Positions 6,593 to 32,095 of a stretch of DNA of 64,000 bases are shown here, in pieces. The translations under genes and the position numbers were made by a program. Origin of the DNA: a virus (Duplodnaviria; Caudoviricetes); the IMG/VR virus record IMGVR_UViG_3300034061_004620; one strand, 5' to 3'. Position 1 is the stretch's first letter. Every line of letters begins with the position of its first letter. The notes under the pieces were generated by a model. The model did no database searches and was not told the origin of the DNA. It saw only the letters and a list, made by a program, of their open reading frames with translations.

Positions 6593-6816
6593 TTTTCCAT
6601 GAGTTCAACTTAGGTGATGTTGAAGATCCTGAAATATACGCTGCCACACCACTTTGTGATTGGCAAAACTCTGAACAGGGTAGGTGGATCATGCAACATT
6701 GCAGAGATCCAAAATACAAGGTATCTGTGGATCCATACAACTATGGTTATAAGGTCATTGTGTATGGAGATCTTACACCCGAAGCCGCAACCTATTTTAC
6801 CTTAAAGTATAAATGA
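6589..6816 (+). CDS. Small hypothetical protein
   Basis: ATGA-coupled on both sides; GDVEDPEIYAA motif. Confidence 0.75.
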   Translation: MIFHEFNLGDVEDPEIYAATPLCDWQNSEQGRWIMQHCRDPKYKVSVDPYNYGYKVIVYGDLTPEAATYFTLKYK

Positions 6817-12804: not shown

Positions 12805-13198
12805 AGATAGTTTTTGCCCATTTACCTGCGTCTTGTTCAGTTACTCTGATATCATATTTGTCGGGAGCCACAAATATTTGATTTGTATCTTTGTATCTAC
12901 CTTCTGTAATTGTATCTACCCAAATTAAAAAATGTGGGTCGTATATATCTCGCATTTCTTTAAGCGGACATACAAAGTCAGCTATTATAAAATCACGATT
13001 AGATGTGTCTGCAATTTCTCGCATTCTTTTACTTTGTCGTAGTCTACCCGCTTCACTGAAATCCCAATCATTGAATTTCCTACGTATTTCATCAGCATTT
13101 AACCATAATGCATCAGGAGAAAAATAATTTAATAAATTTATAGCAAGGGTGGTTTTACCTGCGCCTGGCAGACCCATTATAAGTATACGTTTTGTCAT
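12779..13198 (-). CDS. Adenylylsulfate kinase (CysC)-like P-loop kinase
   Basis: GLPGAGKTT, WLNADEIR, DFSEAGR, IADFVCP parallel the CysC motifs LDGDxxR, GFSxxDR and ISP. Confidence 0.8.
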   Translation of the reverse strand: MTKRILIMGLPGAGKTTLAINLLNYFSPDALWLNADEIRRKFNDWDFSEAGRLRQSKRMREIADTSNRDFIIADFVCPLKEMRDIYDPHFLIWVDTITEGRYKDTNQIFVAPDKYDIRVTEQDAGKWAKTIYEQISHKI

Positions 13199-14676
13199 GA
13201 AAATACCTTCACGTTGTATTTACTTTCAAATCTATCCGCATCTACTCGATCGTTTACTATAGGCTCACCCTTAATATTTAAACTTGTATTAAGCAACATA
13301 GGGCAATCCGTTAAAACAAACCATTTTTCTAACAGTTCTCGGATTCCTGAACCATCTCGCGGTACCGTCTGTACTCGACTGGTCCCATCAACATGGCAGA
13401 TAGCAGGAAAACGGTTAGGAAACTTACAACGAGCGACTGACTGCATATAGCGACTATTAGTCCACCCAGGGCTGAAATCAAAGTACTGATCAGCCATCTC
13501 TTCCAATATGACCGGGGCGAAAGGTCTAAATTTTTGTCTTCTTTTGATTTCATTTACTCTATCCTTTATGTTGGGTCCTCTTGGATCTGCTAATAAACTT
13601 CTATTCCCCAAAGCACGTGGACCAAACTCAGCACGACCATTAGCAACACCACAAATACCGTCAGATAGTAAACTATCAAGTATGGATGTAACGGGATATG
13701 CGCCCGGAATATTGTGACCAAGATAAGCATTGACCCAATTAACACGCCGCCCATATTTAAGTGCGGCAGCACCAAGGCTGCTACCAGCATCACCAGGATT
13801 AGGCATAATCCAAATGTTTTCAAAATACTCTCCAAGATTTCTATTAGCCAAACAGTTTAATGCAACGCCGCCCATGTACACGAGATTAGTACTCCAGTTA
13901 AAATCTCTTGCGCGACGCATTACATTATAAATTAAATTTTCTACAGTCTTTTGTGCAGCAGCAGCTATATCAGCATCGTGTATATCTTGCATAAATGTGC
14001 GGTCTGCCCCGGCATGTAAATTGTGCTTAAACGTCACATTCCATTCGTTATTGATTAATGCATCTTGCATAGATGCAGCATGTCCTGTTCTTCCGTACGC
14101 TGACATTCCCATTAGAATATATTCGTCTTCGTTGGGCTTAAGACCAACTCTTTGTGTCATGGCAGAATAAAACAAGCCAATACTGTGAGGATATTGTTGC
14201 GACCATAATTTTTTATATTGTGCATAACCACGTCTATCATATTCTGCACCATATATACTGATAGTATCCCATTCTCCTATAGCATCAATAACAACCACTG
14301 TGGCACGATCATACGTACTGGTTTGAAATCCGGCTGCTGCATGACTGAGATGATGATTATGAGAACTATAACTGGGAATGTGTGCCCATCCTCCAAACTG
14401 TTCTGTTAAGATTTTCTTGGTAGATAGTTGATTCCACTCTATCCCTTCGCCGCTATATAACCTACGTAATTGCTTCTTCCATGGAGATTCATAATATGCA
14501 ACATGATGAATAGGAAAGTAGTCCATCACATCATCCATTAATGTGCGACAGATGTTTGAGTCGTTCTTCGACTTGCTATAGCGTTCGCTATGAGCAGCAA
14601 ATAGTATATCGCCTTGTGTATTAATTACACTAACTGCGGCGTCATGAAAGCCAGCTGATATTCCTAATATATTCAT
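13195..14676 (-). CDS. Carbamoyltransferase (NodU/CmcH/TobZ family)
   Basis: Start refined to MNILGISAGFHDAA. ERYSKSK, HHLSHAA, DAIGE, EYILMGMSAYG, GGVALNC, PGDAG, EFGPRALGNRS, RPFAP, HVDGTSRVQ, LNTSLN. Confidence 0.96.
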   Translation of the reverse strand: MNILGISAGFHDAAVSVINTQGDILFAAHSERYSKSKNDSNICRTLMDDVMDYFPIHHVAYYESPWKKQLRRLYSGEGIEWNQLSTKKILTEQFGGWAHIPSYSSHNHHLSHAAAGFQTSTYDRATVVVIDAIGEWDTISIYGAEYDRRGYAQYKKLWSQQYPHSIGLFYSAMTQRVGLKPNEDEYILMGMSAYGRTGHAASMQDALINNEWNVTFKHNLHAGADRTFMQDIHDADIAAAAQKTVENLIYNVMRRARDFNWSTNLVYMGGVALNCLANRNLGEYFENIWIMPNPGDAGSSLGAAALKYGRRVNWVNAYLGHNIPGAYPVTSILDSLLSDGICGVANGRAEFGPRALGNRSLLADPRGPNIKDRVNEIKRRQKFRPFAPVILEEMADQYFDFSPGWTNSRYMQSVARCKFPNRFPAICHVDGTSRVQTVPRDGSGIRELLEKWFVLTDCPMLLNTSLNIKGEPIVNDRVDADRFESKYNVKVFS

Positions 14677-15295
14677 TGATATGTTCTGCTGTTTGTTGAT
14701 GACCAAGTTCTAATGGATGCCCTCTTGGACCCTTAAGACAATCGCCCATCCAATCCACCATTGCTTCATCGGGCCATCCTATAAAATACTGTGTATCAAT
14801 TTGTTTAATTAAATCATTGTTGCGTTCGTCGGTTCGTCTTAGGTCTTGATGATTTCCAAATACATCAAACATCAAATAAGGTTTGTTATTAAGTTTTAAA
14901 TATGATTGTACAAGTACAATGTTTAACAAGTATTGTCTATATAGATAATCATCATTATGGTGTCTACTATAATAATCAGTTACATTTGCTCGCCATGGAT
15001 ATTGATGTTTAAATGGTACATTAATTCTCCCGGGCCATGTATCAAATATATCATATTCGTCGGCTATTTCAATTCTATCAAAATGACTCCATGCTACAAT
15101 AACTGCATCAAAGTTATTTGATTCTTCTACGACTGTTCTAACCATGTGCGTATTGCCACGTCCTGGTTTACCTAAGTTAGTAAGTGTAGAATCAAGTGCA
15201 GCAGCTACTAATGCCGGCCATGCTGTATCCGCTGGGTTATCTAATTCGTCACCGTAGGTGAAACTATCGCCTACAGTTAATAATCTTTTTTTCAT
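14642..15295 (-). CDS. SGNH/GDSL-like hydrolase or acyltransferase
   Basis: VGDSFTYG (block I), NLGKPGRGN (block II), GHPLELGH (block V His). Confidence 0.75.
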   Translation of the reverse strand: MKKRLLTVGDSFTYGDELDNPADTAWPALVAAALDSTLTNLGKPGRGNTHMVRTVVEESNNFDAVIVAWSHFDRIEIADEYDIFDTWPGRINVPFKHQYPWRANVTDYYSRHHNDDYLYRQYLLNIVLVQSYLKLNNKPYLMFDVFGNHQDLRRTDERNNDLIKQIDTQYFIGWPDEAMVDWMGDCLKGPRGHPLELGHQQTAEHINEYIRNISWLS

Positions 15296-15393
15296 TTATA
15301 GATAAATGGATCTCGTTTACGTAATTCACGTAATTTTCTTCGATAACGTATTTCTAATACAATTCTATTCCAAATGTTTTTTAACCATGTCAT
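15292..15393 (-). CDS. 33-aa basic peptide; not in the ORF track
   Basis: MTWLKNIWNRIVLEIRYRRKLRELRKRDPFIYK*. It fills the gap between the two SGNH genes and its TGA overlaps the next ATG. Confidence 0.75.
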   Translation of the reverse strand: MTWLKNIWNRIVLEIRYRRKLRELRKRDPFIYK

Positions 15394-16162
15394 TGAATTT
15401 CTCCTTGAGTAAATCTGCTGCGTCTATATGTGCTTGTTCAAGAGGGTGAGTTGTTCCTATTGGGTATTTGTTTTCAAGTGCCCATTGATAAAATCCTCTT
15501 GGAGTCTGTGTTTCATTGGGGTTAATTCCAGCCGGAAACCAAAACCAAGATTCTTGATCTTGAATTATTTGTCTATAAAGGCTTTGAATTGTTTCGCTAC
15601 TGTTTTTAACTGTTACACTATGTAAGAAATTATTATCTGCACACGTAAACAGATATCTCACACCATTCGTTTTTAGATAATTTTGAAGGTAAACAATTTC
15701 CTTTAAAGTCGAGTATACTTCCCAGTATTCCCCTGCTCCTACATGCTTGAAAAATAACGACGCAAACGTATAAATGCCGGAAAGTTTAGCACGATTAAGA
15801 GTGTCATGATGATCTTTTAGTATCTGAGCATCTTGGTTCACAAATTTTTTTTCAACCGACTGTTTATCCTCTATAGTCCACGGAGTTATAGAATACCAAT
15901 CTCTTGTAATCTGTCCGGTATCGTATGTGAATTTAAATTCATACCTGCCAGGAAATGTCCAACAAACAAAAACAAATAGTTCCTTGCCTAAATGTTTTTC
16001 AACAGCGTCAATAGTTCTTCTGGCGATGCCATCATTCCCAATTCCTGGCCACGCTATGCATTCATAATGATACTGGTCACTTAATAAAGCTGCAAAAGTG
16101 TTTTTTTGAGACTGTAATTCACTTCCGTAAATAAAGCTATCACCGGCTGCTACTATAATCAT
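15365..16162 (-). CDS. SGNH/GDSL-like hydrolase or acyltransferase (paralog of 14642-15295)
   Basis: AGDSFIYG, AWPGIGN, THPLEQAH. Confidence 0.7.
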   Translation of the reverse strand: MIIVAAGDSFIYGSELQSQKNTFAALLSDQYHYECIAWPGIGNDGIARRTIDAVEKHLGKELFVFVCWTFPGRYEFKFTYDTGQITRDWYSITPWTIEDKQSVEKKFVNQDAQILKDHHDTLNRAKLSGIYTFASLFFKHVGAGEYWEVYSTLKEIVYLQNYLKTNGVRYLFTCADNNFLHSVTVKNSSETIQSLYRQIIQDQESWFWFPAGINPNETQTPRGFYQWALENKYPIGTTHPLEQAHIDAADLLKEKFNDMVKKHLE

Positions 16163-17294
16163 ATCCTGGCTTCATCATATCAATTTGCATTTGTTTGTAA
16201 TTGTAATCACTCCAACAATAATCATAGGTATTTGAAATACCATTAACTTCAATTTTGTAAATGTCTAAATGATTACTTAATATTTGTTGCACGGTAGCTT
16301 CATGTAATGTTCCAAAACCTGTGCTAAGATTAACCTGTCCTACAGGTAGGTATCCTAAACTTAAATTTGGATCATTAATTTCTTTGTTATTTGTTTGTAA
16401 CCAAGCATAAAAATCATTCATTTGTTTGTTGTGCCATTCATGGGCGCCGTTATACACAACACTTTTCCCCCATTCAACATCAAATTCTCCACTAAAATAT
16501 TTTAGTTCTGTTATAGCTTCACACACAGTATCAGTCAACTGCGGTGCACATTCATCTCTAAATACTTCAAATAATGTTTTACCAATTTGTGTCCAATGCA
16601 TATATACTCCGCCAAATACACGGTCGTACCCATTGGTAATAAAACCTTGCTTATGTTCATTGGTTAGTGTATAACGTTCGGCGTGTAAAAAAGTGGTGAT
16701 TTGACTTGGACGTATCCACTCCGCAGCAGTTGCTTGTTTACGTTGACTAAGACAGAGATTCTCAATTTCATGGCATAAATTGTTTAGTTGTCGTATAGCA
16801 TATTTTGTGGTATAATCAGCATACTTGTAATAAGAACTTAAATTTTCAACTGTTCCTTGCAATATTTCAAAATAATTATGAAGTCTATTCATGACCTCGT
16901 GTTTTATGCTCAAACCTAAATTAGATTCATCCCATCCAATTGGATATTCGTCGCCGAATCTAATTGAATCAGGAACATAAAAATCGTCAATGACAAAAGG
17001 TTGTAATCCCATGGTTTCCCAAACTTTTGTTCTGTTAAACACGTTGATCCGATATACCGCATCATTTAACTCTTTACACAAATAATTTAAATTTCTGGGA
17101 GTATGGGGGAATCCCATAAAACAAAAATTTTTTTCAATTAAACGCTTTTGCACAAGTTCTTTTTGCAAAGCTTGTGCCCAATCTTGTGCTAACTGGGTAT
17201 CGTTTAGTTCTATATCGTAATCAATTTGATCGCTTTTTATTAAAGGATTACGTAAAACTACTTTAACCGATTGAATTCCACCACTCATAAACAT
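16140..17294 (-). CDS. Hypothetical protein (384 aa), function unrecognised
   Basis: Long ORF coupled within the minus-strand operon; no motif recognised. Confidence 0.8.
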   Translation of the reverse strand: MFMSGGIQSVKVVLRNPLIKSDQIDYDIELNDTQLAQDWAQALQKELVQKRLIEKNFCFMGFPHTPRNLNYLCKELNDAVYRINVFNRTKVWETMGLQPFVIDDFYVPDSIRFGDEYPIGWDESNLGLSIKHEVMNRLHNYFEILQGTVENLSSYYKYADYTTKYAIRQLNNLCHEIENLCLSQRKQATAAEWIRPSQITTFLHAERYTLTNEHKQGFITNGYDRVFGGVYMHWTQIGKTLFEVFRDECAPQLTDTVCEAITELKYFSGEFDVEWGKSVVYNGAHEWHNKQMNDFYAWLQTNNKEINDPNLSLGYLPVGQVNLSTGFGTLHEATVQQILSNHLDIYKIEVNGISNTYDYCWSDYNYKQMQIDMMKPGYDYSSSR

Positions 17295-18558
17295 CCGCTC
17301 TCTTTGAAAGTATTTCGTCCATAGTTGTAGACTGTGTACGAATAGACTCTAATTGTAACACACGAGCTTTACCTTTTGCAACTCCTTTGAGATAAGCATC
17401 TAATCCATATTGTTCCAAAAAGGTAGGGCGTGTTTTTAACTGAACTAAGATATCCTTTAATGGTCCGGCTACTCCGGCGTTTAATATTTCATCTACCCAG
17501 GCATCTAAAATTGATCTTGGTAGGGATAAAGGCGACATAACTATGTCTGGTGTAAAACTAAAGACAACCTTAGCAAGGATGTCAACGCCCAAATCTTTAG
17601 CTAACTGCTGTATATTTAATACCTCAAACATACCAGGTAAGGTAAGTGTGAAGTCTAATCTCATTTGTCTCCGGTGTTTAGCGATTGCAACTCCTGCCTT
17701 AAAGTTTTCAAGCCATGCTTGATAATCGAGGCCTGTTCTGATATATTCTCCAATCGCTCCTGTGCCGTCGATGCTGGCACAAATTTGCCAATCACGTAAA
17801 TAAGCGAGTACATCTTTATAAAGATTACAACCTCTATAACTAACGCGGCTAAGATTAGTATTGTATCGAGCATAAACACGTGGTCCGTCTCCCAGTTCTA
17901 TAATACGCTGCATGTACCGCCAATGTTGTTCGTACATTAACGGTTCTCCCCCCACCCAATAAACTTCTTCTACACGGTGGTCCTCAACTGCTGCTGCAAA
18001 CTCGGCTTCAACTTGATTAGTCTGGAAATGTTCAATTTGTTTTTTGATTTCAGGGTTCATCCAATTGTTTTTTGGATTGGACCAATCGATCATATCATGT
18101 TGTCTTTGTTCGCTTTCCCACGAACTTGACAACATGTCGCCACACATACGGCATTTAAAGTTACAAAGATTACTAAATCTGTAATCCCAACTAACAGGTT
18201 GCATGGTTGTATAACCTGTTTCGTCGGTACTTTCAAGCACTTGCAAATACTTATGTTGGAATAAATTGTTGAAATAACTACGGTAAACGTCAGTGTTAAG
18301 CAATTTATTATTACACACTTCGCACTCAGGTAATGTTTCTCCGGCCATCATACGGCGACGTACACTACGCATATGATCACTGTTCCAATGCTGTTCAAGT
18401 GTTATAGGAATATAACTACCTGTCCCGGCATTGCTGTCAATATACTGCTGAAAATTGGTTGCGGATTCGCGGCTTGCACAACAAAGTCTTCTTTCAGTTT
18501 GTGGACTTAGATATGTGTGAGTCCACGGTGCCATACATAGTGTGCTTGGTTTATTCAT
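17263..18558 (-). CDS. Radical SAM protein with N-terminal twitch domain
   Basis: LCMAPW...RLCC...ECEVC; CNFKCRMC; VGGEP; YNTN; ASIDG. Confidence 0.93.
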   Translation of the reverse strand: MNKPSTLCMAPWTHTYLSPQTERRLCCASRESATNFQQYIDSNAGTGSYIPITLEQHWNSDHMRSVRRRMMAGETLPECEVCNNKLLNTDVYRSYFNNLFQHKYLQVLESTDETGYTTMQPVSWDYRFSNLCNFKCRMCGDMLSSSWESEQRQHDMIDWSNPKNNWMNPEIKKQIEHFQTNQVEAEFAAAVEDHRVEEVYWVGGEPLMYEQHWRYMQRIIELGDGPRVYARYNTNLSRVSYRGCNLYKDVLAYLRDWQICASIDGTGAIGEYIRTGLDYQAWLENFKAGVAIAKHRRQMRLDFTLTLPGMFEVLNIQQLAKDLGVDILAKVVFSFTPDIVMSPLSLPRSILDAWVDEILNAGVAGPLKDILVQLKTRPTFLEQYGLDAYLKGVAKGKARVLQLESIRTQSTTMDEILSKRADVYEWWNSIG

Positions 18559-19222
18559 TCAAATATTTTTCCATTGCTGTAAAAATTTCTTCTTTAGAGT
18601 AACACCATGGCTCAATTGATTGGTTAATTGTTTCTTTTTCGTTAAGAGTTAAATGTGGAAAAAAGTTGTTAACTATTTCCCTATTTGAAATTGGTTCAGA
18701 AATCAAATTTCTCTCAGTAACATCTGATGTAATAGAAAAATTAATATCTTCAGCAAGGTTCTCAAGATTGTACCATTGTATTCTTGCGTTTAAATTAATT
18801 TGATCCAAATACTGACTATATTTTAAGTCATATAAAACATTTTTTGTGATAGTAGAATGAATTAAAGAACTTAATCGTAAAATATTTGTTTTGAAGATGC
18901 CACTTAACTTTTGCTCTAACCACAATCTATTACTACCGTATGGTAAATGTGGTCTTAGTACACTATCTATTGTTCCTATTATTACTAATCTTTTAATTTT
19001 TGTTTGACTGATATTACTATATAACCAACGCACATTATCATAATCATTTTTAGCATCTGTGTTTGCTTTAATTCTATTTCCGCTTGGTGCAGCCAAATAT
19101 ACTATATCAAATTCATAATTATTGATACTTGTAATATTTGAAGAATTGAATTCATGTGTGGGGTTAACAATCTTATTAAGATAGTTTCCTATTAGACCAT
19201 TTGAGCCAACAACCGCTATCAT
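18551..19222 (-). CDS. Short NAD(P)-binding SDR-like NDP-sugar enzyme (atypical)
   Basis: VVGSNGLIG (GxxGxxG), VYLAAP, PYGSNR (YxxxR variant of YxxxK). Confidence 0.7.
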   Translation of the reverse strand: MIAVVGSNGLIGNYLNKIVNPTHEFNSSNITSINNYEFDIVYLAAPSGNRIKANTDAKNDYDNVRWLYSNISQTKIKRLVIIGTIDSVLRPHLPYGSNRLWLEQKLSGIFKTNILRLSSLIHSTITKNVLYDLKYSQYLDQINLNARIQWYNLENLAEDINFSITSDVTERNLISEPISNREIVNNFFPHLTLNEKETINQSIEPWCYSKEEIFTAMEKYLNE

Positions 19223-20154
19223 TCTAAATAATTTAAAATCTCGTCAATAATTTCTGATTTAATTTTTTGCTTAACCAGATCCTTATCAAAAAAACGAGCA
19301 TGATTATAAGCAAGTTTTTGTTTGGTTAAAGTATCTTCAAATATGTAATTTTTGTTTTCAAATTCATTGGTAAGTCTGGTAATTTCCGAAACTATCTTGT
19401 CCAATCTTAAATTTTCATTTTCTATTAGATCGTATGATTCATCTATTAGGTGGTCAAAGGTTTCGAAGCCCTGCTCATGCAAGTACTTTAGAGTATCTTT
19501 AGATCCCCAAACTATAAAAGGATGTTGATATGCAATTGGTTTGAATATTTTTTCAGATATAAATGGAGGCGATGTGACAAAGGTTTCGACTACTACACTG
19601 AATTCAGTGGCATCGTACCAATTTGGATTAAAATATCTTTGCCAATCTCCGTTAGCATAATCTACATCATCTTTTATTTTGATGCCGTTTTGAACATAAC
19701 TGTACATTGCATTTTTTAAGGAATTCTGCAACCTAAGGTATATTTGATCTCTATGACTACGTTTTAAATGCATTAACATCAGGAATGCCTTGGCATGGTT
19801 TCTATTGGGTACGTATTTGTGATATTTCAAATGCCTATACCAAAGACTTTCATTGTACCATATCCAGTTTTTATTTCTAACCGATAGTCTGTCTGTGACC
19901 TCGCTTGTTTTTGAAATGTCATTATCCCAAAAACAATCTACTACTAATTTATATCCTTTATTGACATAAGGCACATACCATGTAGCGTTAGTATTAAAAA
20001 AATCTGTTACACAAACAGTGTCACTTGGAGAATGGTTTACAGTTTCGTGCTCGTAAATTATGTTACAATAATCACTAATTATGTCTACAAACCAGTCAGA
20101 GCAAAAACTGTTAAGATCATTATTTGAAACTAACAAATTAATTTTGTTTGTCAT
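19219..20154 (-). CDS. Putative glycosyltransferase (GT10/GT-B-like), paralog of 10702-11826
   Basis: FSVVVET...ISEKIFKPIAYQHPFIVWG...GFETF...DESYD. Start refined to MTNKINLL. Confidence 0.55.
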   Translation of the reverse strand: MTNKINLLVSNNDLNSFCSDWFVDIISDYCNIIYEHETVNHSPSDTVCVTDFFNTNATWYVPYVNKGYKLVVDCFWDNDISKTSEVTDRLSVRNKNWIWYNESLWYRHLKYHKYVPNRNHAKAFLMLMHLKRSHRDQIYLRLQNSLKNAMYSYVQNGIKIKDDVDYANGDWQRYFNPNWYDATEFSVVVETFVTSPPFISEKIFKPIAYQHPFIVWGSKDTLKYLHEQGFETFDHLIDESYDLIENENLRLDKIVSEITRLTNEFENKNYIFEDTLTKQKLAYNHARFFDKDLVKQKIKSEIIDEILNYLE

Positions 20155-21358
20155 ATCCCATTGCCTTTGCAATCTCTTGATGAGTGTTGTAAAATGATTG
20201 TTGCCTATATGTATCAGTCTGCTTCATCTTGAATAAAAATTCTTCGCCATCTGATCCGTTACCCTGTTCGATAAATCGTATAATACGTAAAATTTCTGCA
20301 CGATGCTTGGGATTGATAAATGTGCCGGTACGCAATTTTTCTATAACAACTTCTTTGGCGATTGGGGTAAGACTATCAATACACATATGTTTTGGATCAT
20401 GTAACATGTTAAAATAATGATCGTTGAACTTTTGAGTATTCACCCAATTACACAAGTCTTCTAAATAGAAAACATTCTGTATATTGATTGTCATACATAC
20501 TTGTGTGGTAATCTTGTTCGGAAATTGATCGCGTAACTCATGAAATTTCTGAATATTTGTTACAACTTCATTCCAATAAGCACCATACCGTTCATATTCG
20601 AATCTTTCTCCGATATTGTCGATGCTAAATGCAATGTCTACACGTTTGAAGTGGCTCCACAGTTCGTGTGCATTGGGCCACTGTGTTCCATTTGTATTAT
20701 AATGGATATCAATATTTTTGGCATAACCTTGATCCACTGCGTATTGCAACAGATCAAAATGCTCTTGAATCATAAATGGTTCACCACCAGTGAATTCAAA
20801 ATATTTAATATTAGGAAGTAATTGACGCAAATTATCCCAAAAAGTTTGAGTCTTTCTTGGCCATGCTCCTTTTTGTAAAAATTTATATGCTAAATGTTCT
20901 TTTTTATTTGTTAATTCCGGAATATAATTAATCTCTTCTTGTGCCCATTTACTACTGGACCAAGACCCACATATTCTGCATTTAAGATTACATATATTAC
21001 CTAACTTTAAATCTACAAACCAAAGTTGATCAGGTGTATCATTTTCATAATCTACTTTGTCTGCTAATTCTTTTAATCGTATTTTGCTATATATACGTTT
21101 GCTTGCACGACCGGCATCTTCCTCCTGCCAGCAACGATTGCACGTTTCTGGTTTTTCTCCTGCGCGAAATCGTTGCCGCAAATTCTGCATGTAAGAACTA
21201 TTATAAATAGTTTCTAAATTTGTTTGATTTAAATCGTATTTGACTCCATTGTTGTCGCAGATTTCTTCTATCGCCAAACAACAGGGTCTGGCAGTCCCAA
21301 TTGGACTTGTCTCTATACTAATCCACGGCAACATACAAATTGTTTTAGGTAAAGTCAT
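20138..21358 (-). CDS. Radical SAM protein with N-terminal twitch domain
   Basis: ICMLPW...RPCC...TCNRC; CNLKCRIC; TGGEP; YNTNG; FSID. Confidence 0.93.
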   Translation of the reverse strand: MTLPKTICMLPWISIETSPIGTARPCCLAIEEICDNNGVKYDLNQTNLETIYNSSYMQNLRQRFRAGEKPETCNRCWQEEDAGRASKRIYSKIRLKELADKVDYENDTPDQLWFVDLKLGNICNLKCRICGSWSSSKWAQEEINYIPELTNKKEHLAYKFLQKGAWPRKTQTFWDNLRQLLPNIKYFEFTGGEPFMIQEHFDLLQYAVDQGYAKNIDIHYNTNGTQWPNAHELWSHFKRVDIAFSIDNIGERFEYERYGAYWNEVVTNIQKFHELRDQFPNKITTQVCMTINIQNVFYLEDLCNWVNTQKFNDHYFNMLHDPKHMCIDSLTPIAKEVVIEKLRTGTFINPKHRAEILRIIRFIEQGNGSDGEEFLFKMKQTDTYRQQSFYNTHQEIAKAMGYDKQN

Positions 21359-22674
21359 TTAATTGTAATCAATTCAGGAAATGTGTTCCAAAAATTTTCA
21401 TTTCTTACGTCATCCAGTTTTTTCACTTCTTCTCTGAATCTATCAAGTAATTTGCTTTGGTTGTTTGCACGTAAAAAATTAAGTGCGCTCTTAAATCCAT
21501 TTGTGGCTCTTTGTAATTTATCTTGTGGCTCGAGCCATGCTATATGTTCTTCATAGGCCGGAATAACAACATTTTTTTTAAAATCTTCAGGCAATATATC
21601 AATACGATACCAGTCTGGACTTTGGCAAATATTTACATTAAAATCTTTTGCATCGATAAGACCCATTTGTACCCATTCTTTATGAAACGCCAATACATGC
21701 AATACATTCATAGCACTAATTGTTGCACTGATATAAAAATCTACATGAGGAACTTCTTGCATCATTCTATAGCGATTTTGTTCAACTTGTGTCCAATTGG
21801 TACCTTTCCGCATTAGTTCGGCACGAGCACCACTTGCATCAAGACTCGCTCCTACACTGACATTTGTAAAATTCTTCCAATAGTCAAATACATGTTTATC
21901 TTTAAATCTTAGTTCGCTAAAATTAGTATTGTATTGAATCCTAATATCTGTTTTTTTATGTTCGATCAATTTCTCTAACATGAAGTAATGTTCCTTCATT
22001 ATTAGAGGTTCGCCGCCGGCGAAATAAACTTGCTCAAGGTATGGAATATGTGGGAGCATTTGTTCAAGCATGGCATCTTCATCGCCGGCGGTATATTCAA
22101 CTCGCGCCATGTCTCTGCCAAGCACGTCGGGTTTACGATTATAAAGTTTGACATGATCATTGTACCAGTTGCTACTAAATATTGGACCGCAACTGCGGCA
22201 ACTAAAATTACATAGATTGCTAAATCTAACATCCCAATATCTTAGATTAAATTTAGGATTAGTTCCGTCTTCTAATGTAGCATCAACTTCTGCCACGTGA
22301 TGACCATAATTTCTATTTGCATCATGTCTCATACTGAAAAAACCGTTATCCTCTTGTTCGTAACATTTTGTGCATTCTTTACATGGCCGATCTTCGAGCA
22401 TGTTTTTACGCATTGTACGATAAGCGTCTTGATTCCAAACCTGCTCCATTGTATGTTTACGAAGGTCTCCCACAGGATGCCAATAATCAGCTAAACAGCA
22501 AGGATAAGCACGACCATCAGGAAAAGCATGCATGTGAACCCATGGCATCATACAAAACGTTTTACTCTCGGTTAATTTACTCCATTGATCCGGAGACAGT
22601 TTGTCTTTTTCAATGAAATAAGGAGCTCTTTCGTTATATACATACCCTTTATTGTAAAATGCTTTTACAGTCAT
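21355..22674 (-). CDS. Radical SAM protein with N-terminal twitch domain
   Basis: FCMMPW...DGRAYPCC...ECTKC; CNFSCRSC; AGGEP; YNTN; ASLD. Confidence 0.93.
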   Translation of the reverse strand: MTVKAFYNKGYVYNERAPYFIEKDKLSPDQWSKLTESKTFCMMPWVHMHAFPDGRAYPCCLADYWHPVGDLRKHTMEQVWNQDAYRTMRKNMLEDRPCKECTKCYEQEDNGFFSMRHDANRNYGHHVAEVDATLEDGTNPKFNLRYWDVRFSNLCNFSCRSCGPIFSSNWYNDHVKLYNRKPDVLGRDMARVEYTAGDEDAMLEQMLPHIPYLEQVYFAGGEPLIMKEHYFMLEKLIEHKKTDIRIQYNTNFSELRFKDKHVFDYWKNFTNVSVGASLDASGARAELMRKGTNWTQVEQNRYRMMQEVPHVDFYISATISAMNVLHVLAFHKEWVQMGLIDAKDFNVNICQSPDWYRIDILPEDFKKNVVIPAYEEHIAWLEPQDKLQRATNGFKSALNFLRANNQSKLLDRFREEVKKLDDVRNENFWNTFPELITIK

Positions 22675-24026
22675 AAACTATTGTACCAATCTGATAAATC
22701 TTGAAAAGTTGACACAAAATCCTTGTCTCTACGGATATCATATTGGGAATAAAATTTTTTAAAATCTTTTTGTAAAATTTCTTGTTCGGCTGCACCCAAA
22801 TGCGGAGTTTTTACTACGTCTAAATAATCTATTAGTCTTTGTAACTGATTTAATTCCATTTCGTGAATTAATTCATTTTTTTGATTTTGCATCATCCAAT
22901 CTTGCAATTTATTTTTATATTTTGTTCTGAGTTCATCTGGTAAAACCAATGGACTCTGAAAACTGGGGAATCTTAATATATTTAATGTGAAAAATGGATA
23001 ATTTTTTCCATAACACATTTTCCACTGAACAATTTGATCTAAAAAATCAGTCAAACTTTCTAAACTTAGAGCATTTATTGTACACATAATGTGTAAGCCA
23101 CGTAACTTGTAGTTGGCAAAATTATCACATATCAGATCTATACTATTAATCCAATCGTTCCAAACCAATCCGTCTCTAATATACTCTGCATGAGCTCCGA
23201 CACTTTCATTACTTGTGTATAAGTCAATGGGTGCGTCCACACTTTGAAATAAACGATCGATATCAACTTGTGTTCCTAAATTAGAATTAATCGCAAGTCG
23301 TGTTTGCGATCGTCCTTTGTTGGCCTTAAACCAATCAAGTAATTGCCAGGTGTATCCTGACATTAGAGGCTCTCCACCGGTAATCCTTAATTCTGTTAGG
23401 GTTTTATGGAGGTCTGATTCCCACCATTGGAAGAAGGCATCGATGTAGGGGTTATTTTCACCAAATTTAAAAAGCTGCGAACTGTCATGGCTATGAGTAA
23501 AATGGTTCCTGCCGTCAGACACCAGATCCATGTAGGGTCCGTTATTATTGATGTCTTTAACCCAAGTACTGCTGAATGCAGGATTGCAATAAGAGCAAGC
23601 AAACTGACAAGTACGATCAAAACTGATTTCAAGAGTGCGAAGATTGACATCTTCTGTAAAATTTGATTTGAATGCATTATCTAAATCCTCATCTGTAAAC
23701 AACACAGTTTTGTACACACGATCGCTTATGTTATCACGACCGATGTCCTCAATTTTCCAACAATATTCACAACCGGCCGGCCTTTCGCCTTGTTGCATCT
23801 GACGGCGTTCTTCTTTTTTCTTTGCAGTATTGTGTAATGTCCGTGGATTAATTTTGGCTTCTTCTATATCAACTTTGTGTGGCAATGGGTGATGACAACT
23901 TGTAGTCATACCTGACCCTAACCAAATAGTGGCATTATACCATTTTGCGCCGCAGAATGATTCAGACTTGATATCAATTACTCTGCGTCTATATTCTAAA
24001 TCTGTTTCGTTATTAATTTTGGGCAT
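22671..24026 (-). CDS. Radical SAM protein with N-terminal twitch-like domain (SCHHP variant)
   Basis: FCGAKW...TSCHHP...GCEYCW; CQFACSYC; TGGEP; INSN. Confidence 0.92.
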   Translation of the reverse strand: MPKINNETDLEYRRRVIDIKSESFCGAKWYNATIWLGSGMTTSCHHPLPHKVDIEEAKINPRTLHNTAKKKEERRQMQQGERPAGCEYCWKIEDIGRDNISDRVYKTVLFTDEDLDNAFKSNFTEDVNLRTLEISFDRTCQFACSYCNPAFSSTWVKDINNNGPYMDLVSDGRNHFTHSHDSSQLFKFGENNPYIDAFFQWWESDLHKTLTELRITGGEPLMSGYTWQLLDWFKANKGRSQTRLAINSNLGTQVDIDRLFQSVDAPIDLYTSNESVGAHAEYIRDGLVWNDWINSIDLICDNFANYKLRGLHIMCTINALSLESLTDFLDQIVQWKMCYGKNYPFFTLNILRFPSFQSPLVLPDELRTKYKNKLQDWMMQNQKNELIHEMELNQLQRLIDYLDVVKTPHLGAAEQEILQKDFKKFYSQYDIRRDKDFVSTFQDLSDWYNSL

Positions 24027-25395
24027 GATATCGGCATTCTTCCCAAAATTCTTTCATTTCCGGGAATGTATTTAAAAAGTTTGTATCTCTTCGTTTGTCG
24101 TGCTCGTTAAAGAATCTAAAAAAATCAGCACGTTGCATTATAACATATTCTTGATCTAATTTGCTACCTTCTTGCATCCAATCTACCACTCGTTGCATTC
24201 TTTGCACTTCGTAATCTTTAAATCCTTGAAATGGTTTATCTTCAGTTTCTAAATTGGCCTGCATCCAATTGACCACATCTTGTAATCGTTTTGCATATAC
24301 AGGTGGTAATATCTGTAAGCTTTGCCAGGTAGGTTGTCTGAGTATGGGTGTATCAAACCAAACTCGTTGATATGTTGTACTGTGTAACCTTCGTAAAGCA
24401 AGAACAGTTTCTAATTGTCTTTTTAAACCTAACACACTTAGATTATTCATAGTAATAATGAATGTTAGACTGTTACGATAAGGAATGTGTCTTAAGAAAT
24501 AATCAACTCTTGCTAAAACTCTTTTATATTCCATTCCATGTCTGATATATTCGGCATGTTCGGCTATTCCGGTATCCAAACTTACATACTGCATGAAATG
24601 TTCAATATTTGTGTTACATAATTGGCTTACATAGCCAAAGTATTGTTCCCATAACTTTTCATCTACACTAAAGTTACTGGTCACATCAATATGCAAATCA
24701 GGTTTAGGAAAGGCCAACACATAGTCAAACACTCGATATGTATTACGATCCATTAGGGGTTCGCCGCCGGTCATTCTAAAATGTTTTAGTCGTGGATATA
24801 AACTGGGCCACCACTCCCAGAATGCATCAACATAAGGGTTATCTTCTCGAACAGGAATAGGTCGTCGGCGACCGGTAAAATGGGAAACATCATTATGAGT
24901 AGTGCTGGTGGGATATCCTCCATAACGTCTAATTTCATCATCCCAGCTACTACTAAACTGAGGACTACAATAGGAACACTTGAGATTGCAAGCATGATTA
25001 AAATTGACTTCCACATAGGAAGGAATAGCATCTTCATCGCCTGATGAGTTCGTGATGGTTTCAAAATGCTCACTTGCCCACGGTTCACCTGATCGGTAAT
25101 GTCTATCACTTAAATTCCCCAAATCTTCTTGTGTCCAACAATAACTGCATTCCTGTGGACGTTCGTTGCGTAGCATAATTTTACGCTGTTCTTTTTTGTA
25201 TGGTGTGTTATGTAACGCACCGGGATTGTCTTTTAATAGTGTGGCGTCTATTTCATGTAATGGTGGATGATAGCAACTGTTTGTTAGACCTGTGGGTAAG
25301 TGTAGACTTACTTGTTGCCATTTAGCAAGGCAAAGACTATTACCAAGTCTGTCTTTCATATTTTCAGCAAGATTTAAAAAATCACTTTTAACCAT
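24013..25395 (-). CDS. Radical SAM protein with N-terminal twitch-like domain (SCYHP variant)
   Basis: LCLAKW...NSCYHP...ECSYCW; CNLKCSYC; TGGEP; VTSN; VSLD. Confidence 0.92.
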   Translation of the reverse strand: MVKSDFLNLAENMKDRLGNSLCLAKWQQVSLHLPTGLTNSCYHPPLHEIDATLLKDNPGALHNTPYKKEQRKIMLRNERPQECSYCWTQEDLGNLSDRHYRSGEPWASEHFETITNSSGDEDAIPSYVEVNFNHACNLKCSYCSPQFSSSWDDEIRRYGGYPTSTTHNDVSHFTGRRRPIPVREDNPYVDAFWEWWPSLYPRLKHFRMTGGEPLMDRNTYRVFDYVLAFPKPDLHIDVTSNFSVDEKLWEQYFGYVSQLCNTNIEHFMQYVSLDTGIAEHAEYIRHGMEYKRVLARVDYFLRHIPYRNSLTFIITMNNLSVLGLKRQLETVLALRRLHSTTYQRVWFDTPILRQPTWQSLQILPPVYAKRLQDVVNWMQANLETEDKPFQGFKDYEVQRMQRVVDWMQEGSKLDQEYVIMQRADFFRFFNEHDKRRDTNFLNTFPEMKEFWEECRYHAQN

Positions 25396-25837
25396 GTTGC
25401 CATTCTAAACGATTAACATCAAATTGATTCCCTAACTCTAACATATATCCTAATGGCGAAGACCCAGTTAGATGCATAGTAATACAACCGTTAAATCCCC
25501 AATAATTTTCATGTGTAATGGTTTTATTTCCTTCCCGCTGACAATAAAATAATTTGTCAATCATATCAATATGAATTGCAAATCCATTAATTAAAATTCC
25601 CACGATTTCTACGGCTTTATCAGCAACAACCTTACCTTTATGAAAAACTGTATCACCATTGTTTTTATTAGAAGAATAAATGGTAATTACTGAAGGCCAA
25701 TTTACTGTAAAACTTATTTGCCTATGATCGTTATCAAAACTATCCTCTTCAAAGACCAATATATCTTTATCATAGATTTTAAGAGCCATTGATCCGTTAT
25801 TATTTTTTATCTTGGTTAAAAATGTTATATTAACCAT
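25388..25837 (-). CDS. Hypothetical protein (beta-rich)
   Basis: 149-aa ORF coupled between two radical SAM genes. Confidence 0.7.
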   Translation of the reverse strand: MVNITFLTKIKNNNGSMALKIYDKDILVFEEDSFDNDHRQISFTVNWPSVITIYSSNKNNGDTVFHKGKVVADKAVEIVGILINGFAIHIDMIDKLFYCQREGNKTITHENYWGFNGCITMHLTGSSPLGYMLELGNQFDVNRLEWQHG

Positions 25838-27245
25838 ATTGTGTTATTTCCTGCTGAGTAGATTTAAAAGTTAGACCGTCGCCTGCACCATGTGAAAAAT
25901 TTAATTGTGAAAGAATAGTTGTTAATGACTTGTGATAATTTAATCTATCTTGTGTAGATACGTTATTAACGTTTGAAATCCAGTAAGTTGGAATTTCACC
26001 TTGTGTTATATTATAATCTTTTTTCTTTCTATCTAATTCGGTGTTTGGCAAAATTGAAGCGAGACTGAATACTACATTCTTTACAGGAAATCGAGCATAC
26101 TGTTTTCTATCTATAAACCATTTTTTTGTGAATTCAAAATCTTCTTTTGTTTCTGTTGGATATCCAACAATTAACAATAGGTTTAAAGGTATTGAAAATT
26201 CTTTAGCCATTTCTAAATGATAATCAATGTCATCGTTAGTGAAGTTTTTTCCTAAATTTATTCTAACTTTTTCTATGACGCTTTCTATTCCTAACAATAG
26301 ACTCCCATTGCTTTCTTTAATTTTTTGCCATAATGTTCTTGGATGTTGATTTTGACCTCTAACTATAAAATAACCGTCCCATGAGATTACATTTGTAGCT
26401 TTGGAATTGTATTCACAAATATAATCTAACAGTTTATTAAACTCTTTCATATTTCCGTTAGTAAGACTATTATAAAAGAAAAAATTTGAAATTTTATATT
26501 TTTCAATTTGGTGCAACATTTCGGAAAAAATATTACTTGCAGATCGATATTGGTATTTTTTCCAATGTTCGATAATATCACAAAATTCGCATGCCCTCAC
26601 ACAGCCTCTACTATCACAAATTGGGATTCCACATTCTTTATATTGTTGAAAATTATAATTATCAAAATTAGGAAATGGAAGATTGTTTAAATCAGTTATT
26701 TGTTGCCAATTTGCAGAGTTAATTCCCGGAAACGACATATTATTCTTCAAATATTGAACTAAACTATATTCCCCATCACCATTTATATAATCATCAATTA
26801 AATTTCTTTCCTTTAGTAGCTCTGCATAACCAATACTTGATTCTGCAATGAAATTTTTAATACCACTGCCCCCAATAATAATTTTTACATTTGGCGCACG
26901 AAATCTAAGATGATAGCATAACCAGATTGTAAAAAATTGATTATCCTGACATAATAAAGATAATGCAATAATTTTTGGGTTAAATGAAATTATCCTATTT
27001 GTACAAAATTCAATAAAAGATTCAATTGCTGCATAATTTTCGCTTGGAATTTCTTGAAATAATAAAAAGTTTTCTAATATTTTCGTGTCTTTACTGTGTC
27101 TAATATACAAATTCGCTTCATTATTAAGATCTATTGCTACAGCAGAAAAACCAGCCGCAATAACCGATGATTTTAAAACTGCCGGTGCTAACACCGGCCT
27201 GGAACTAAAAGTTCCGGCGGTTGAACATATCAAGACGTCAATCAT
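25830..27245 (-). CDS. B12-binding-type (class B-like) radical SAM protein
   Basis: N-terminal Rossmann-like region (IDLN, IALSL, KIIIGG, GDGE), LPFPNF, SRGCVRACEFC, GIES, IVGYPTET. Confidence 0.88.
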   Translation of the reverse strand: MIDVLICSTAGTFSSRPVLAPAVLKSSVIAAGFSAVAIDLNNEANLYIRHSKDTKILENFLLFQEIPSENYAAIESFIEFCTNRIISFNPKIIALSLLCQDNQFFTIWLCYHLRFRAPNVKIIIGGSGIKNFIAESSIGYAELLKERNLIDDYINGDGEYSLVQYLKNNMSFPGINSANWQQITDLNNLPFPNFDNYNFQQYKECGIPICDSRGCVRACEFCDIIEHWKKYQYRSASNIFSEMLHQIEKYKISNFFFYNSLTNGNMKEFNKLLDYICEYNSKATNVISWDGYFIVRGQNQHPRTLWQKIKESNGSLLLGIESVIEKVRINLGKNFTNDDIDYHLEMAKEFSIPLNLLLIVGYPTETKEDFEFTKKWFIDRKQYARFPVKNVVFSLASILPNTELDRKKKDYNITQGEIPTYWISNVNNVSTQDRLNYHKSLTTILSQLNFSHGAGDGLTFKSTQQEITQYG

Positions 27246-27868
27246 ACTATAAAAAAAATTAGAAATTGCTTCACTAATCCAAATTTAGCAAAGTTATTAC
27301 TTATATGCCATTGATTGCGGTCCCATACTAAAATATCTCCTAATGTATGCCGATAGTCAATGTCAATTGGCAATTTTTTTATCAAGGAAAAATTTTTATC
27401 ATGATCAAAATCAGTAAGAACTAAATTATTTTCATCCGTAGAGTTCTGCACCATTTGCTCGTAACTTGGATTAAAATCAGACCATACCTTAAAGGTAATT
27501 GTACGAAAATTGTCCCCTTCAACTAACGGAATCAGAACTGCTTTGTTATGCCTTATAGTTTTTGATCCAAAGCTCATACAATCGGGATAAAGATCTTGTT
27601 GCTTACGACTGTCTACATGTAAAATATAAGGTTTTTTACTTGATTTATATGATCCGGTATCAAATTCGTGATCATTTCCAATTATTTCATTTAATATTGG
27701 ATTCATTGTTTTGTAAATAAAATTTTCTGGTATATGGTATTCAAGATTTTTATTTACAATTCCCACTTCTGCGTGTTGTTCAGGTTGGTTTTTGTAAAAT
27801 TCTTTTATTGACTCTATTGTCTTTAGCTCAAGTATATTTTTGTAAACTTTACTTTTATGATTGTTCAT
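27242..27868 (-). CDS. Probable 2OG-Fe(II) dioxygenase-like protein
   Basis: ILHVDS (HxD), LIPL, GDILVWDRNQWH (distal His), KQFLIF. Start refined to ATG 27868 behind AGGA. Confidence 0.55.
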   Translation of the reverse strand: MNNHKSKVYKNILELKTIESIKEFYKNQPEQHAEVGIVNKNLEYHIPENFIYKTMNPILNEIIGNDHEFDTGSYKSSKKPYILHVDSRKQQDLYPDCMSFGSKTIRHNKAVLIPLVEGDNFRTITFKVWSDFNPSYEQMVQNSTDENNLVLTDFDHDKNFSLIKKLPIDIDYRHTLGDILVWDRNQWHISNNFAKFGLVKQFLIFFIV

Positions 27869-27903
27869 TATAATCCTATTTTGGTTATATTTTTTAGAAA
27901 ATA

Positions 27904-28851
27904 TTACCAACCTTCTATTCTACGTATGACATCAATTTCTGTCATCATTATTTCACTATTACGCTGCCCAATACTGTAGTGATGTTTAAAAAATTCACTT
28001 TGCTTGGGTGTGTAAGTTACTATAGGTAAACCCAATCTGTTTGTCAATGCACTTTCTATTCTTTCGCATCCTTCCTGGGGATCTTCAGTGCTAAAACTGG
28101 TCCATAGTTTTTCAAGCATATCAAAGTCCTGTACATGATGATGATCCCATCCTTCAAGCATAATCATGTATGTGCCTAATCTTGCTCCATACATTGCCCA
28201 GTAACCATTTTCAACGTCTGCACCCACTGAGTGCCAAATACATAAATGATCATAGTTTCTTTTATTCACCCCATCTTCAAATTCTTGTAAAGTGGGCTTG
28301 TGTCCTCTGTTAAGACACATCTTTACACCTTCACGGAATCCGGCTCGCCATGCTTGTTTGGCACTGCCATTGGGATATGTTGTCGAATAACAATTATGCA
28401 TAGCCACATACTTTGGGTCAAAACAAAATTCAACAGCAGTTTCTTCATCGCCCAGGCTGGCCTCATGAGTACGCATACGATTTACAAAGTCCTTGGTCCA
28501 ACAACTAACACCACCGTTGCCATACCTTAACCCATTTATAACATTACGTGCTTTCCATCTAAAAACGTGGTCATGATTCCGTTCATCCAGCGATAATTGT
28601 AAGTTAAAAAATTCTGGATCCGGAATATTGTCTCCATCAACGAGAACAAAACGGTCTGTGTCTGACGCAGCGGCGGCTGCTTTATGCGCTGCATCAGACC
28701 CTTTAACTCCATCAACTCTCTTTGCCCATGGCACCATGTTTTGAATTTGGATCCAAAATTCTTCTTTTTTAGGTTCATCATAGGTTAAGAAAATACAATC
28801 TAAATCTGCTATGTCAACAATTTTAGCCGCTGTAGAATTCTGTGCTGTCAT
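27904..28851 (-). CDS. GT-A fold glycosyltransferase-like protein
   Basis: LDCIFLTYDEP, GVKGSDAAH, FVLVDGDN (DxD), NGLRYGNGGV, WRAGFRE. Confidence 0.65.
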   Translation of the reverse strand: MTAQNSTAAKIVDIADLDCIFLTYDEPKKEEFWIQIQNMVPWAKRVDGVKGSDAAHKAAAAASDTDRFVLVDGDNIPDPEFFNLQLSLDERNHDHVFRWKARNVINGLRYGNGGVSCWTKDFVNRMRTHEASLGDEETAVEFCFDPKYVAMHNCYSTTYPNGSAKQAWRAGFREGVKMCLNRGHKPTLQEFEDGVNKRNYDHLCIWHSVGADVENGYWAMYGARLGTYMIMLEGWDHHHVQDFDMLEKLWTSFSTEDPQEGCERIESALTNRLGLPIVTYTPKQSEFFKHHYSIGQRNSEIMMTEIDVIRRIEGW

Positions 28852-32082: not shown

Positions 32083-32095
32083 GTTTTAATTCCTA

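Follow-up and report, generated by a model that had tools for sequence, protein, structure and literature searches.

What does a tailed phage do with a whole set of radical S-adenosylmethionine (SAM) enzymes encoded right after its tail-fibre genes, and which substrate might such a set act upon? The question is raised by a 64,000-nucleotide stretch of viral DNA (Duplodnaviria; Caudoviricetes; IMG/VR virus record IMGVR_UViG_3300034061_004620), referred to here as the window, in which six open reading frames (ORFs), rS1–rS5 on the minus strand and rS6 at position 5078 on the plus strand, encode radical SAM proteins matching the NCBIfam family NF033640 (N_Twi_rSAM, "twitch domain-containing radical SAM protein"). 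The answer that we lean towards is that rS1–rS5 tailor a carbohydrate, possibly one residing on the tail fibres, in a series of radical steps. The six genes are the following:

17263..18558, minus strand: rS1, N_Twi radical SAM protein, core orthogroup 1 (NF033640, 279.3 bits)
20138..21358, minus strand: rS2, N_Twi radical SAM protein, core orthogroup 2 (348.3 bits)
21355..22674, minus strand: rS3, N_Twi radical SAM protein, core orthogroup 3 (397.9 bits)
22671..24026, minus strand: rS4, N_Twi radical SAM protein, core orthogroup 4, SCH subtype (282.9 bits)
24013..25395, minus strand: rS5, N_Twi radical SAM protein, core orthogroup 5, SCY subtype (306.7 bits)
5078..6592, plus strand: rS6, accessory N_Twi radical SAM protein (206.6 bits over residues 121–497)

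The NF033640 model (398 positions, curated cut-off of 170 bits) is passed by all six proteins (207–398 bits) with alignments running from model positions 1–2 to 386–398, and, as none of the 14 control genomes contained a match above the cut-off, these six full-length matches are not a product of chance. Every other NCBIfam radical SAM model scored the six proteins far under its own cut-off, which places none of them in a characterised radical SAM family, in keeping with the original prediction, made by a model from the sequence alone; the uncharacterised N-terminal-twitch family that it had mentioned does exist, and is NF033640 itself. The "array of five" that it described holds as far as the ORF coordinates are concerned, but the run is broken by two genes that are not radical SAM genes (18551–19222 and 19219–20172), and the six N_Twi genes are not all the radical SAM genes there are, as the window also holds a seventh one of the B12-binding class (25830–27245).

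Pairwise identity among the six proteins is just 20–31%, and their alignment nevertheless retains an invariant N-terminal Cys, CxxC, CxxxCxxC and GGEP. Five of the six proteins have (P/K)W after the first Cys and rS6 has YPF; at the second ligand region, CC is found in three proteins, SCH and SCY in one each, and ICP in rS6, so that the cysteine motif, as first worded with (P/K)W and C(C/H/Y), was nearly right and fails for rS6 only; the latter protein carries a 120-residue N-terminal extension, with its CxxxCxxC at residue 232 and GGEP present. Across 46 sequences, C41, C59/C60, C101 and C104 are invariant and lie ahead of C155, C159 and C162. All six proteins display the NF033640 architecture, in which a twitch module with four Cys comes first and is followed by the CxxxCxxC core, GGEP and, at the C-terminus, a helical domain; judging by these matches and motifs, they are intact members of an uncharacterised family. 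The N-terminal position of the twitch-like module, likewise claimed earlier, is borne out by the Pfam domain order, as SPASM was found at residues 8–83, 8–77 and 41–104 of three of the six proteins, ahead of Radical_SAM, and by a profile of the 46 relatives, the first ~75 positions of which (4–75) align to residues 164–238 of BtrN (2-deoxy-scyllo-inosamine dehydrogenase of butirosin biosynthesis, PDB 4M7T), Cys on Cys, at an E-value of 1.5e-7.

By sequence, then, the N-terminal twitch module is homologous to the C-terminal twitch (auxiliary-cluster) domain of BtrN, yet the two enzymes are built differently. The twitch follows the core in BtrN and precedes it in N_Twi proteins; the BtrN core scores −2.9 bits against the N_Twi profile, so the cores are not close; and N_Twi proteins, unlike BtrN, carry a C-terminal helical domain of ~75 residues. 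An inverted order and a core score of −2.9 bits are not what a BtrN-type dehydrogenase, with its twitch C-terminal to an abridged core and its core similarity, would present. BtrN acts on an aminocyclitol sugar and is partnered by a DegT-type aminotransferase, and a DegT gene is found here as well, near rS6. No solved structure in the PDB was matched by the radical SAM profile over its full length, and literature searches on the N_Twi family name returned no paper on function.

How old is this set, and does it stay together? Scanning viral contigs with the rS3 protein (that of the gene starting at 21355) yielded 79 loci, and the order rS5-rS4-rS3-rS2-rS1 is kept in ~70 viral contigs, with 55–97% identity per gene to the counterpart in the window. 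All the loci of at least 20 kb have 5–7 N_Twi copies, the extra ones being divergent inserted paralogues. CxxxCxxC and GGEP are present in all of the 58–70 full-length orthologues of each group and the N-terminal Cys in nearly all of them; for rS1, all 63 full-length orthologues retain the motifs. In a FastTree tree of 135 family members (some long branches render the deep nodes unsure), each of rS1–rS5 falls within its own well-supported clade of phage orthologues, and each such clade has a sister from a bacterial array: a Bacteriovoracaceae sister for rS1 (support 100) and rS2 (support 99), Bdellovibrionota sisters for rS5 (support 96), and, for rS4, a clade taking in two Bacteriovoracaceae genes and a gene of the Ralstonia phage RsoM2USA (support 100). 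The phylogeny indicates that rS1–rS5 are old, non-redundant orthogroups travelling as a set, and the view of the six paralogs as a local expansion is not borne out, rS1–rS5 having been inherited together and rS6 being an accessory gene. An orthologue of the latter was found in just one of four related near-complete genomes (designated G004; 41% identity), and a pattern scan of viral contigs for rS6 relatives found none. That five conserved orthogroups are non-redundant makes sequential, position-specific action, as proposed originally, a reasonable inference.

The family is by no means confined to this phage. Each of the four related near-complete genomes (289–374 kb) has 6–13 NF033640 genes, viral contigs of a second group ("group 2") have 6–10 each, RsoM2USA two, and Vibrio phage K566 two, plus three just under the cut-off; a library-wide profile search retrieved 5,886 family representatives (50%-identity clusters) at E ≤ 1e-30. 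Near-identical DNA was found in lake/freshwater metagenomes from 16 studies, the listed public runs with such DNA included no RNA data from which expression could be read, and a near-identity DNA search of the phage collection gave no match. The full block in phage gene order, fibre genes included, was also seen in contigs of "Haliscomenobacter" (L084 and L085, 183 and 148 kb) and "Polynucleobacter" (L082) metagenome-assembled genomes; these look like jumbo-phage contigs binned into bacterial genomes, and the one binned as Polynucleobacter may give a clue to the host.

What, then, surrounds the set within the phage genome? The rS1–rS5 genes are part of a string of 20 consecutive minus-strand genes, all overlapping, running from 31078 down to 13195. 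It starts with a 104-residue ORF, two GT8-like glycosyltransferase genes, a small ORF, a GT2-like glycosyltransferase gene and a variable slot (occupied here by the ORF 27242..27910, the B12-binding-class gene and the ORF 25388..25837), goes on with rS5-rS4-rS3-rS2, two variably present genes, rS1, the ORF 16140..17294 and an SGNH-like gene, and ends with a 33-residue ORF, a DUF6071/GDSL gene and a NodU/CmcH-type carbamoyltransferase gene. The features of the string other than rS1–rS5, along with those flanking it, are:

31150..33745, minus strand: tail-fibre genes directly upstream of the string (a 310-residue Ser/Thr/Gly-rich protein, 31150–32082, and a 549-residue fibre, 32096–33745)
29980–30813 and 29154–29987, minus strand: two paralogous GT8-like (glycogenin-like) glycosyltransferases, assigned with a joint profile
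27904..28851, minus strand: GT2-like glycosyltransferase, highly conserved (Atlas 0.99, viral "Glycosyltransferase 2-like" clusters)
27242..27910, minus strand: 222-residue ORF of the variable slot, no Pfam match even at E 1
25830..27245, minus strand: B12-binding-class radical SAM protein, accessory (Pfam Radical_SAM 6.2e-11)
25388..25837, minus strand: 149-residue ORF of the variable slot, no family match and no homologue in related loci
19219..20172, minus strand: variably present protein, 28 orthologues, no Pfam, PHROG or PDB match
18551..19222, minus strand: small Rossmann-like protein, variably present, GxxGxxG invariant (G6, G9, G12), in 13 related loci
16140..17294, minus strand: conserved 384-residue protein coupled to rS1, 63 orthologues, always follows rS1
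15365..16162, minus strand: SGNH-like protein (by motif alone), G7-D8-S9 invariant near the N-terminus in 10 orthologues
15292..15393, minus strand: 33-residue ORF, unannotated, with a basic middle, an invariant DPFIYK end and no Cys
14642..15295, minus strand: SGNH/GDSL-like protein (Pfam DUF6071 5.3e-09; Lipase_GDSL_2 1.5e-4, under the gathering score)
13195..14706, minus strand: NodU/CmcH-type carbamoyltransferase (Pfam Carbam_trans_C 6.8e-47, Carbam_trans_N 5.6e-36)
12779..13198, minus strand: APS-kinase-like P-loop kinase (Pfam APS_kinase 3.5e-07, 30.8 bits vs 21.1)
12229..12804, minus strand: cytidylyltransferase-like nucleotidyltransferase, a weak assignment (Pfam CTP_transf_like E 0.0017, under the gathering score), conserved in related loci

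The joint profile of the GT8-like pair matches glycogenin-1 (E 1.9e-5, positions 7–117), and both proteins reach nucleotide-diphospho-sugar transferase and GT8 clusters in Atlas (0.95–0.97); the GT2-like protein has an invariant DGD and a mean column identity of 77%, with its Pfam Glyco_tranf_2_3 match (E 0.0078) lying under the cut-off. The fibre genes (PHROG tail fiber protein, 3.8e-08) are kept upstream of the block in related loci, and the 549-residue fibre has an intramolecular chaperone (IMC) domain (Pfam Peptidase_G2 IMC domain, 1e-06). Further into the fibre region, a tail-fibre-like protein with glycine-rich domains (34189–37512, minus strand) has a loop at residues ~97–160 in which nearly every residue is Trp, Tyr, Gly, Asn or Pro and YYN occurs three times, and 39327–53519 (minus strand) is a single ORF of 4,730 residues. 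The carbamoyltransferase is 58–95% identical in related loci and co-occurs with an rS4-like gene in RsoM2USA, in which a homologue of the SGNH-like protein 15365..16162 (no Pfam, PHROG or PDB match) directly follows the rS4-like gene. The kinase-like and cytidylyltransferase-like genes coupled downstream of the carbamoyltransferase (12229–13198) may form a pair for activation (sulfate or nucleotidyl) that serves the same product.

The protein coupled to rS1 (16140..17294) gave no match in PHROGs, Pfam, PDB profiles or Atlas and no PDB fold by Foldseek, and its AlphaFold (AF2) model, with a predicted local distance difference test score (pLDDT) of 77, retrieved solely uncharacterised (unnamed bacterial) proteins from the AlphaFold DB clusters (TM-score 0.62–0.66). 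The B12-binding-class gene is present in few related loci, with similar genes in the group-2 viral contigs, and its NCBIfam matches to class B methyltransferases are weak, all far under the cut-offs; a methyltransferase it probably is. Several identities were considered and dropped: a 2-oxoglutarate oxygenase for 27242..27910 (an HxD...H pattern seen by eye suggested it, no Pfam match did), a GT10-like "TEK" transferase for 19219..20172 (no Pfam support in 12 orthologues, none in the PDB) and a short-chain dehydrogenase/reductase (SDR) for 18551..19222 (the PDB matches to NAD epimerases are non-significant). As for the timing of expression, the T4 late-promoter core TATAAATA occurs once in the window against ~9 occurrences expected from shuffles, which makes it unusable for this purpose and means that a T4-related phage either avoids TATAAATA or uses another late promoter; sigma-70 and terminator scans of the window did not rise above shuffled controls.

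The case for a glycan as the substrate is made by the company that N_Twi genes keep, as bacterial glycosyltransferase and nucleoside diphosphate (NDP)-sugar contexts, gene fusions, the partners of rS6, a sub-module common to an unrelated phage and the kinship of the twitch with that of BtrN all point the same way. One such link comes from fusions of a GT2 domain (TuaG/EpsD-like) to a complete N_Twi enzyme, found in four bacterial clusters from four sources (68–79% mutual identity, NF033640 360–375 bits), one of which adjoins polysaccharide-export and PEP-CTERM genes. A GT2-radical SAM fusion at an Acidobacteriota locus was rejected as a further example, its radical SAM part being C-terminal-SPASM with a MoaA-like core. 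N_Twi genes form an array among GT2, GT4, GT9, GT1 and YdjC genes in Acidobacteriota and among GT2, DegT, epimerase and UbiA genes in Saprospiraceae, and at a Bacteroidota locus they are accompanied by genes for a UDP-glucose dehydrogenase, an epimerase, a carbamoyltransferase and a UbiA-GT4-GT1 fusion. RsoM2USA, a jumbo phage unrelated to ours, has in common a sub-module of rS4-like, SGNH-like, small ORF, GDSL and carbamoyltransferase genes.

The surroundings of rS6 add to this, since its plus-strand neighbours are:

6589..6816, plus strand: 75-residue ORF between rS6 and the SDR gene, overlapping both neighbours; a gene in the JGI record, no Pfam family
6813..7781, plus strand: NAD-dependent sugar epimerase/dehydratase of the SDR type (Pfam Epimerase 1.5e-41, GDP_Man_Dehyd 1.8e-31)
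7778..8878, plus strand: DegT/DnrJ/EryC1-type sugar aminotransferase (Pfam PF01041 1.5e-77)

Instead of the SDR and DegT genes, the rS6 orthologue in G004 is overlapped by a UDP-glucose/GDP-mannose dehydrogenase gene, so rS6 orthologues are coupled to differing NDP-sugar enzymes in the two phages. The same G004 locus (L169, 271000–289070) also encodes, at 3992–6022 and 11303–12319, a CHASE2-sensor adenylate/guanylate cyclase and, downstream of the rS6 orthologue, a protein of the amidinotransferase/arginine deiminase (ADI) fold.

What the sequences show is membership of the family, intact motifs, conservation as a set, the operon layout and an association with glycosyltransferases. Taken at face value, the associations allow the following scheme, in which the carbohydrate substrate, the reaction type and the acceptor are what we infer. 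The CxxxCxxC of each core would hold a [4Fe-4S] cluster and the N-terminal twitch, with its four Cys ligands, should hold a second one. Each of rS1–rS5 would generate a 5'-deoxyadenosyl radical and take a hydrogen from an NDP-sugar or an assembled glycan, at a position or residue that differs from enzyme to enzyme, whereupon the twitch cluster, by analogy with BtrN, would accept an electron from the substrate radical, the products being keto, epimerised, dehydrated or C–C linked sugars. Their neighbours (the aminotransferase, Rossmann proteins, SGNH-like proteins and the carbamoyltransferase) would process these products further into aminated, acyl-edited and carbamoylated ones, and the adjacent GT8-like and GT2-like enzymes (GT-A) would transfer the sugars to an acceptor, the likeliest being a protein made by the phage, e.g., the tail fibres encoded just upstream. 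A more far-reaching version, which strikes us as doubtful and is offered tentatively, is that the five enzymes form a self-contained radical glycan-editing machine, carrying out several chemically distinct C–H functionalisations on sugars (e.g., epimerisations, oxidations or the making of C–C bonds after assembly) and giving the jumbo-phage fibres a coat of carbamoylated non-canonical sugars, with the machine being common to Bdellovibrio-like predators.

Several observations weigh against a carbohydrate substrate. The preference for sugar chemistry, already voiced in the original prediction, agrees with the GT2-N_Twi fusions, with the genes around the set and with those found nearby in bacteria, but all of this functional evidence is guilt by association, as there is no NF033640 member with a known reaction. 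The GT8-like and GT2-like assignments are by weak homology (E 1.9e-5 for the former, a Pfam score under the cut-off for the latter), and the acceptor is inferred purely from gene adjacency. A seed search placed a sugar-type gene near just 16 of 48 bacterial loci (of at least 15 kb), a proportion given without a control set. The bacterial counterpart of the phage set, an eight-gene chromosomal N_Twi array beside rplU, rpmA and obg on a Bacteriovoracaceae UBA6144 contig (L162, 6055–18051), has no neighbour within 10 kb that could be recognised as a sugar gene; it does have a gene for a secreted Sel1-like protein inside, and some N_Twi proteins are fused to protein-binding tetratricopeptide (TPR) or Sel1 repeats.

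Structure comparison, which had been suggested for the active sites, was run on rS3 and did give a confident AF2 model (pLDDT 93.4), but its top neighbours are tied and discriminate little. The closest solved neighbour by VIA-align is BlsE (Z 12.6, root-mean-square deviation 3.3, 217 residues aligned), a cytosylglucuronate decarboxylase (PDB 7VOB) that acts on a nucleoside-linked sugar acid, which speaks for a sugar substrate, although it is tied within ~1 Z unit with the peptide-modifying CteB, SkfB and anSME and the nucleotide-binding viperin and MoaA. BlsE and rS3 are 14% identical in sequence, and the NCBIfam rSAM_BlsE model gives 16 bits against a cut-off of 400. Foldseek, run with the rS3 model against the PDB, returned generic radical SAM matches alone (TM-score 0.30–0.37). 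With no discriminating neighbour among the tied VIA-align matches, gene context was relied on for the substrate.

Could the substrate be a protein or a peptide instead? The enzymes would then act as SPASM/twitch peptide maturases do, cross-linking or epimerising residues in, e.g., the tail fibres or a small precursor, and most of the characterised SPASM/twitch relatives are indeed peptide or protein maturases, with CteB, SkfB, anSME and SuiB structurally tied with the best neighbour of rS3. The TPR/Sel1 fusions, the Sel1-like gene within the Bacteriovoracaceae array, the position of the block directly after the fibre genes, the Trp/Tyr/Gly-rich loop with its repeated YYN in one fibre protein and the weak likeness of the rS6 core to YhhB and DynA, maturases that form cyclophanes (far under the cut-offs), would all agree with this. 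The auxiliary module does not, as the six proteins have just 4–5 conserved Cys, all of them N-terminal, where a C-terminal SPASM domain would show its seven-Cys pattern with two auxiliary clusters; SPASM models for maturases of ribosomally synthesised and post-translationally modified peptides (RiPPs; sactipeptide, ranthipeptide and cyclophane ones) give 15–42 bits against NCBIfam cut-offs of 300–850, and Pfam finds no peptide-recognition domain (RiPP recognition element/PqqD).

The only conserved small ORF, and in that sense a candidate precursor, is the 33-residue one of the string, although a protein substrate may also be encoded elsewhere. The ORF is found in 62 related loci (mean identity 80%), always just upstream of an SGNH or carbamoyltransferase gene, as well as in the group-2 viral contigs, and its hidden Markov model (HMM) identifies a counterpart of 36 residues, likewise placed, in RsoM2USA (E 2.4e-5). 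It is Cys-free, keeps company with the carbamoyltransferase and not with the radical SAM genes, and does not occur in the Bacteriovoracaceae array. A DUF5989 mini-protein encoded beside the carbamoyltransferase of the Bacteroidota locus has the same ends, M-x-(W/F)-L-K-x-I-W and PFIY, and these common ends, together with the carbamoyltransferase-side position of both, are suggestive, even if the ORF per se cannot be called DUF5989 (no Pfam match; its own HMM reaches DUF5989 at a non-significant E of 4–9). Small DUF5989-like and SxtJ/SxtK-like proteins accompany carbamoyltransferases in bacteria. For these reasons (the position tracking the carbamoyltransferase, the RsoM2USA counterpart, the absence from the Bacteriovoracaceae array and the likeness to DUF5989), the 33-residue ORF is probably an accessory of the carbamoyltransferase module and not a radical SAM substrate. 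With the GT2-N_Twi fusions and the glycosyltransferase-rich bacterial contexts favouring glycans, we regard modification of a protein or peptide as unlikely, though deserving of attention.

Action on nucleotides or DNA, within a pathway of base or DNA-sugar hypermodification, appears quite improbable. It is rS6 that invites the idea, as it comes directly after dihydrofolate reductase and thymidylate synthase genes, and a dCMP deaminase gene lies within the block; by sequence, moreover, the radical SAM core is closest to viperin, a CTP binder. The viperin family model NF038283, however, gives the six proteins 18–28 bits against a cut-off of 180, the likeness being confined to the shared core, the neighbours of rS6 vary between phages with both sets being NDP-sugar enzymes, the conserved array comes after the fibre genes and is linked with glycogenin-like transferases, and bacterial members sit in exopolysaccharide-type loci. 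No more credible is the tailoring of a polyprenyl-linked glycolipid or another lipid of the host envelope, remodelling the surface of the infected cell (e.g., to exclude other phages), for although UbiA prenyltransferase and PhyH-type dioxygenase genes recur together near N_Twi genes at 12 of the 48 bacterial loci (the same seed search, again without a control set), GDGT-MAS is among the structural neighbours of rS3 and the combination of GT2, DegT and SDR resembles Arn-type pathways of lipid-linked aminosugars, the phage block showed no recognisable UbiA homologue or membrane protein, and its transferases look like soluble GT-A enzymes.

Returning to the tailoring of a glycan, how does the locus compare with what has been described in phages? 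As proteins, the six are unremarkable members of a catalogued family, not differing from NF033640 in themselves, and what this locus adds is context, with five genes kept together as a fixed set within a phage operon. Phage modules with multiple radical SAM genes have been remarked on as unusual before: in Campylobacter phages CP220/CPt10 (PMC2853527), in a T4-like marine viral genome with 12 radical SAM genes (PMC5332604) and in Aeromonas phage 332-Vera, with 8 radical SAM genes in its structural cluster (PMC12390700). As here, these are clustered radical SAM genes in large myovirus-type genomes; the family itself was compared for CP220 alone, and its module was rejected as belonging to the same one (best NF033640 score 31 bits, none over the cut-off). 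The ADI-fold protein of G004 brings to mind the glycine amidinotransferase that is reported to lie next to the CP220 module. Virion glycosylation in mycobacteriophages (Freeman et al. 2023, as cited in PMC12619734) offers a parallel of another kind, phage glycosyltransferases encoded beside structural genes having been proposed or shown to decorate virion proteins; here too, GT8-like and GT2-like genes (by weak homology) follow fibre genes in a conserved order, whereas no radical SAM enzymes, carbamoyltransferase or SGNH proteins are known from the mycobacteriophage systems.

To these earlier accounts are added the GT2-N_Twi fusions, the one-to-one bacterial sisters of the five orthogroups and the connection of the 33-residue ORF with the carbamoyltransferase. 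The family NF033640 is large and has its main concentration in uncultured phages that are abundant in lakes and the sea, with 6–13 copies per genome, and since the set takes up at least 8 kb of a tightly packed genome and imposes a heavy iron–sulfur demand, its product must matter for infection. The locus offers a defined and compact gene set for expression, for which the GT2 fusions point to the first partner. Should a glycan turn out to be the substrate, the pathway would be the first in a virus to tailor glycans with several radical SAM enzymes, and would be a source of new C–H functionalising enzymes; and, were the glycan-editing machine outlined above to prove true, radical SAM carbohydrate enzymology would gain a new branch and virions a decoration of a new kind.

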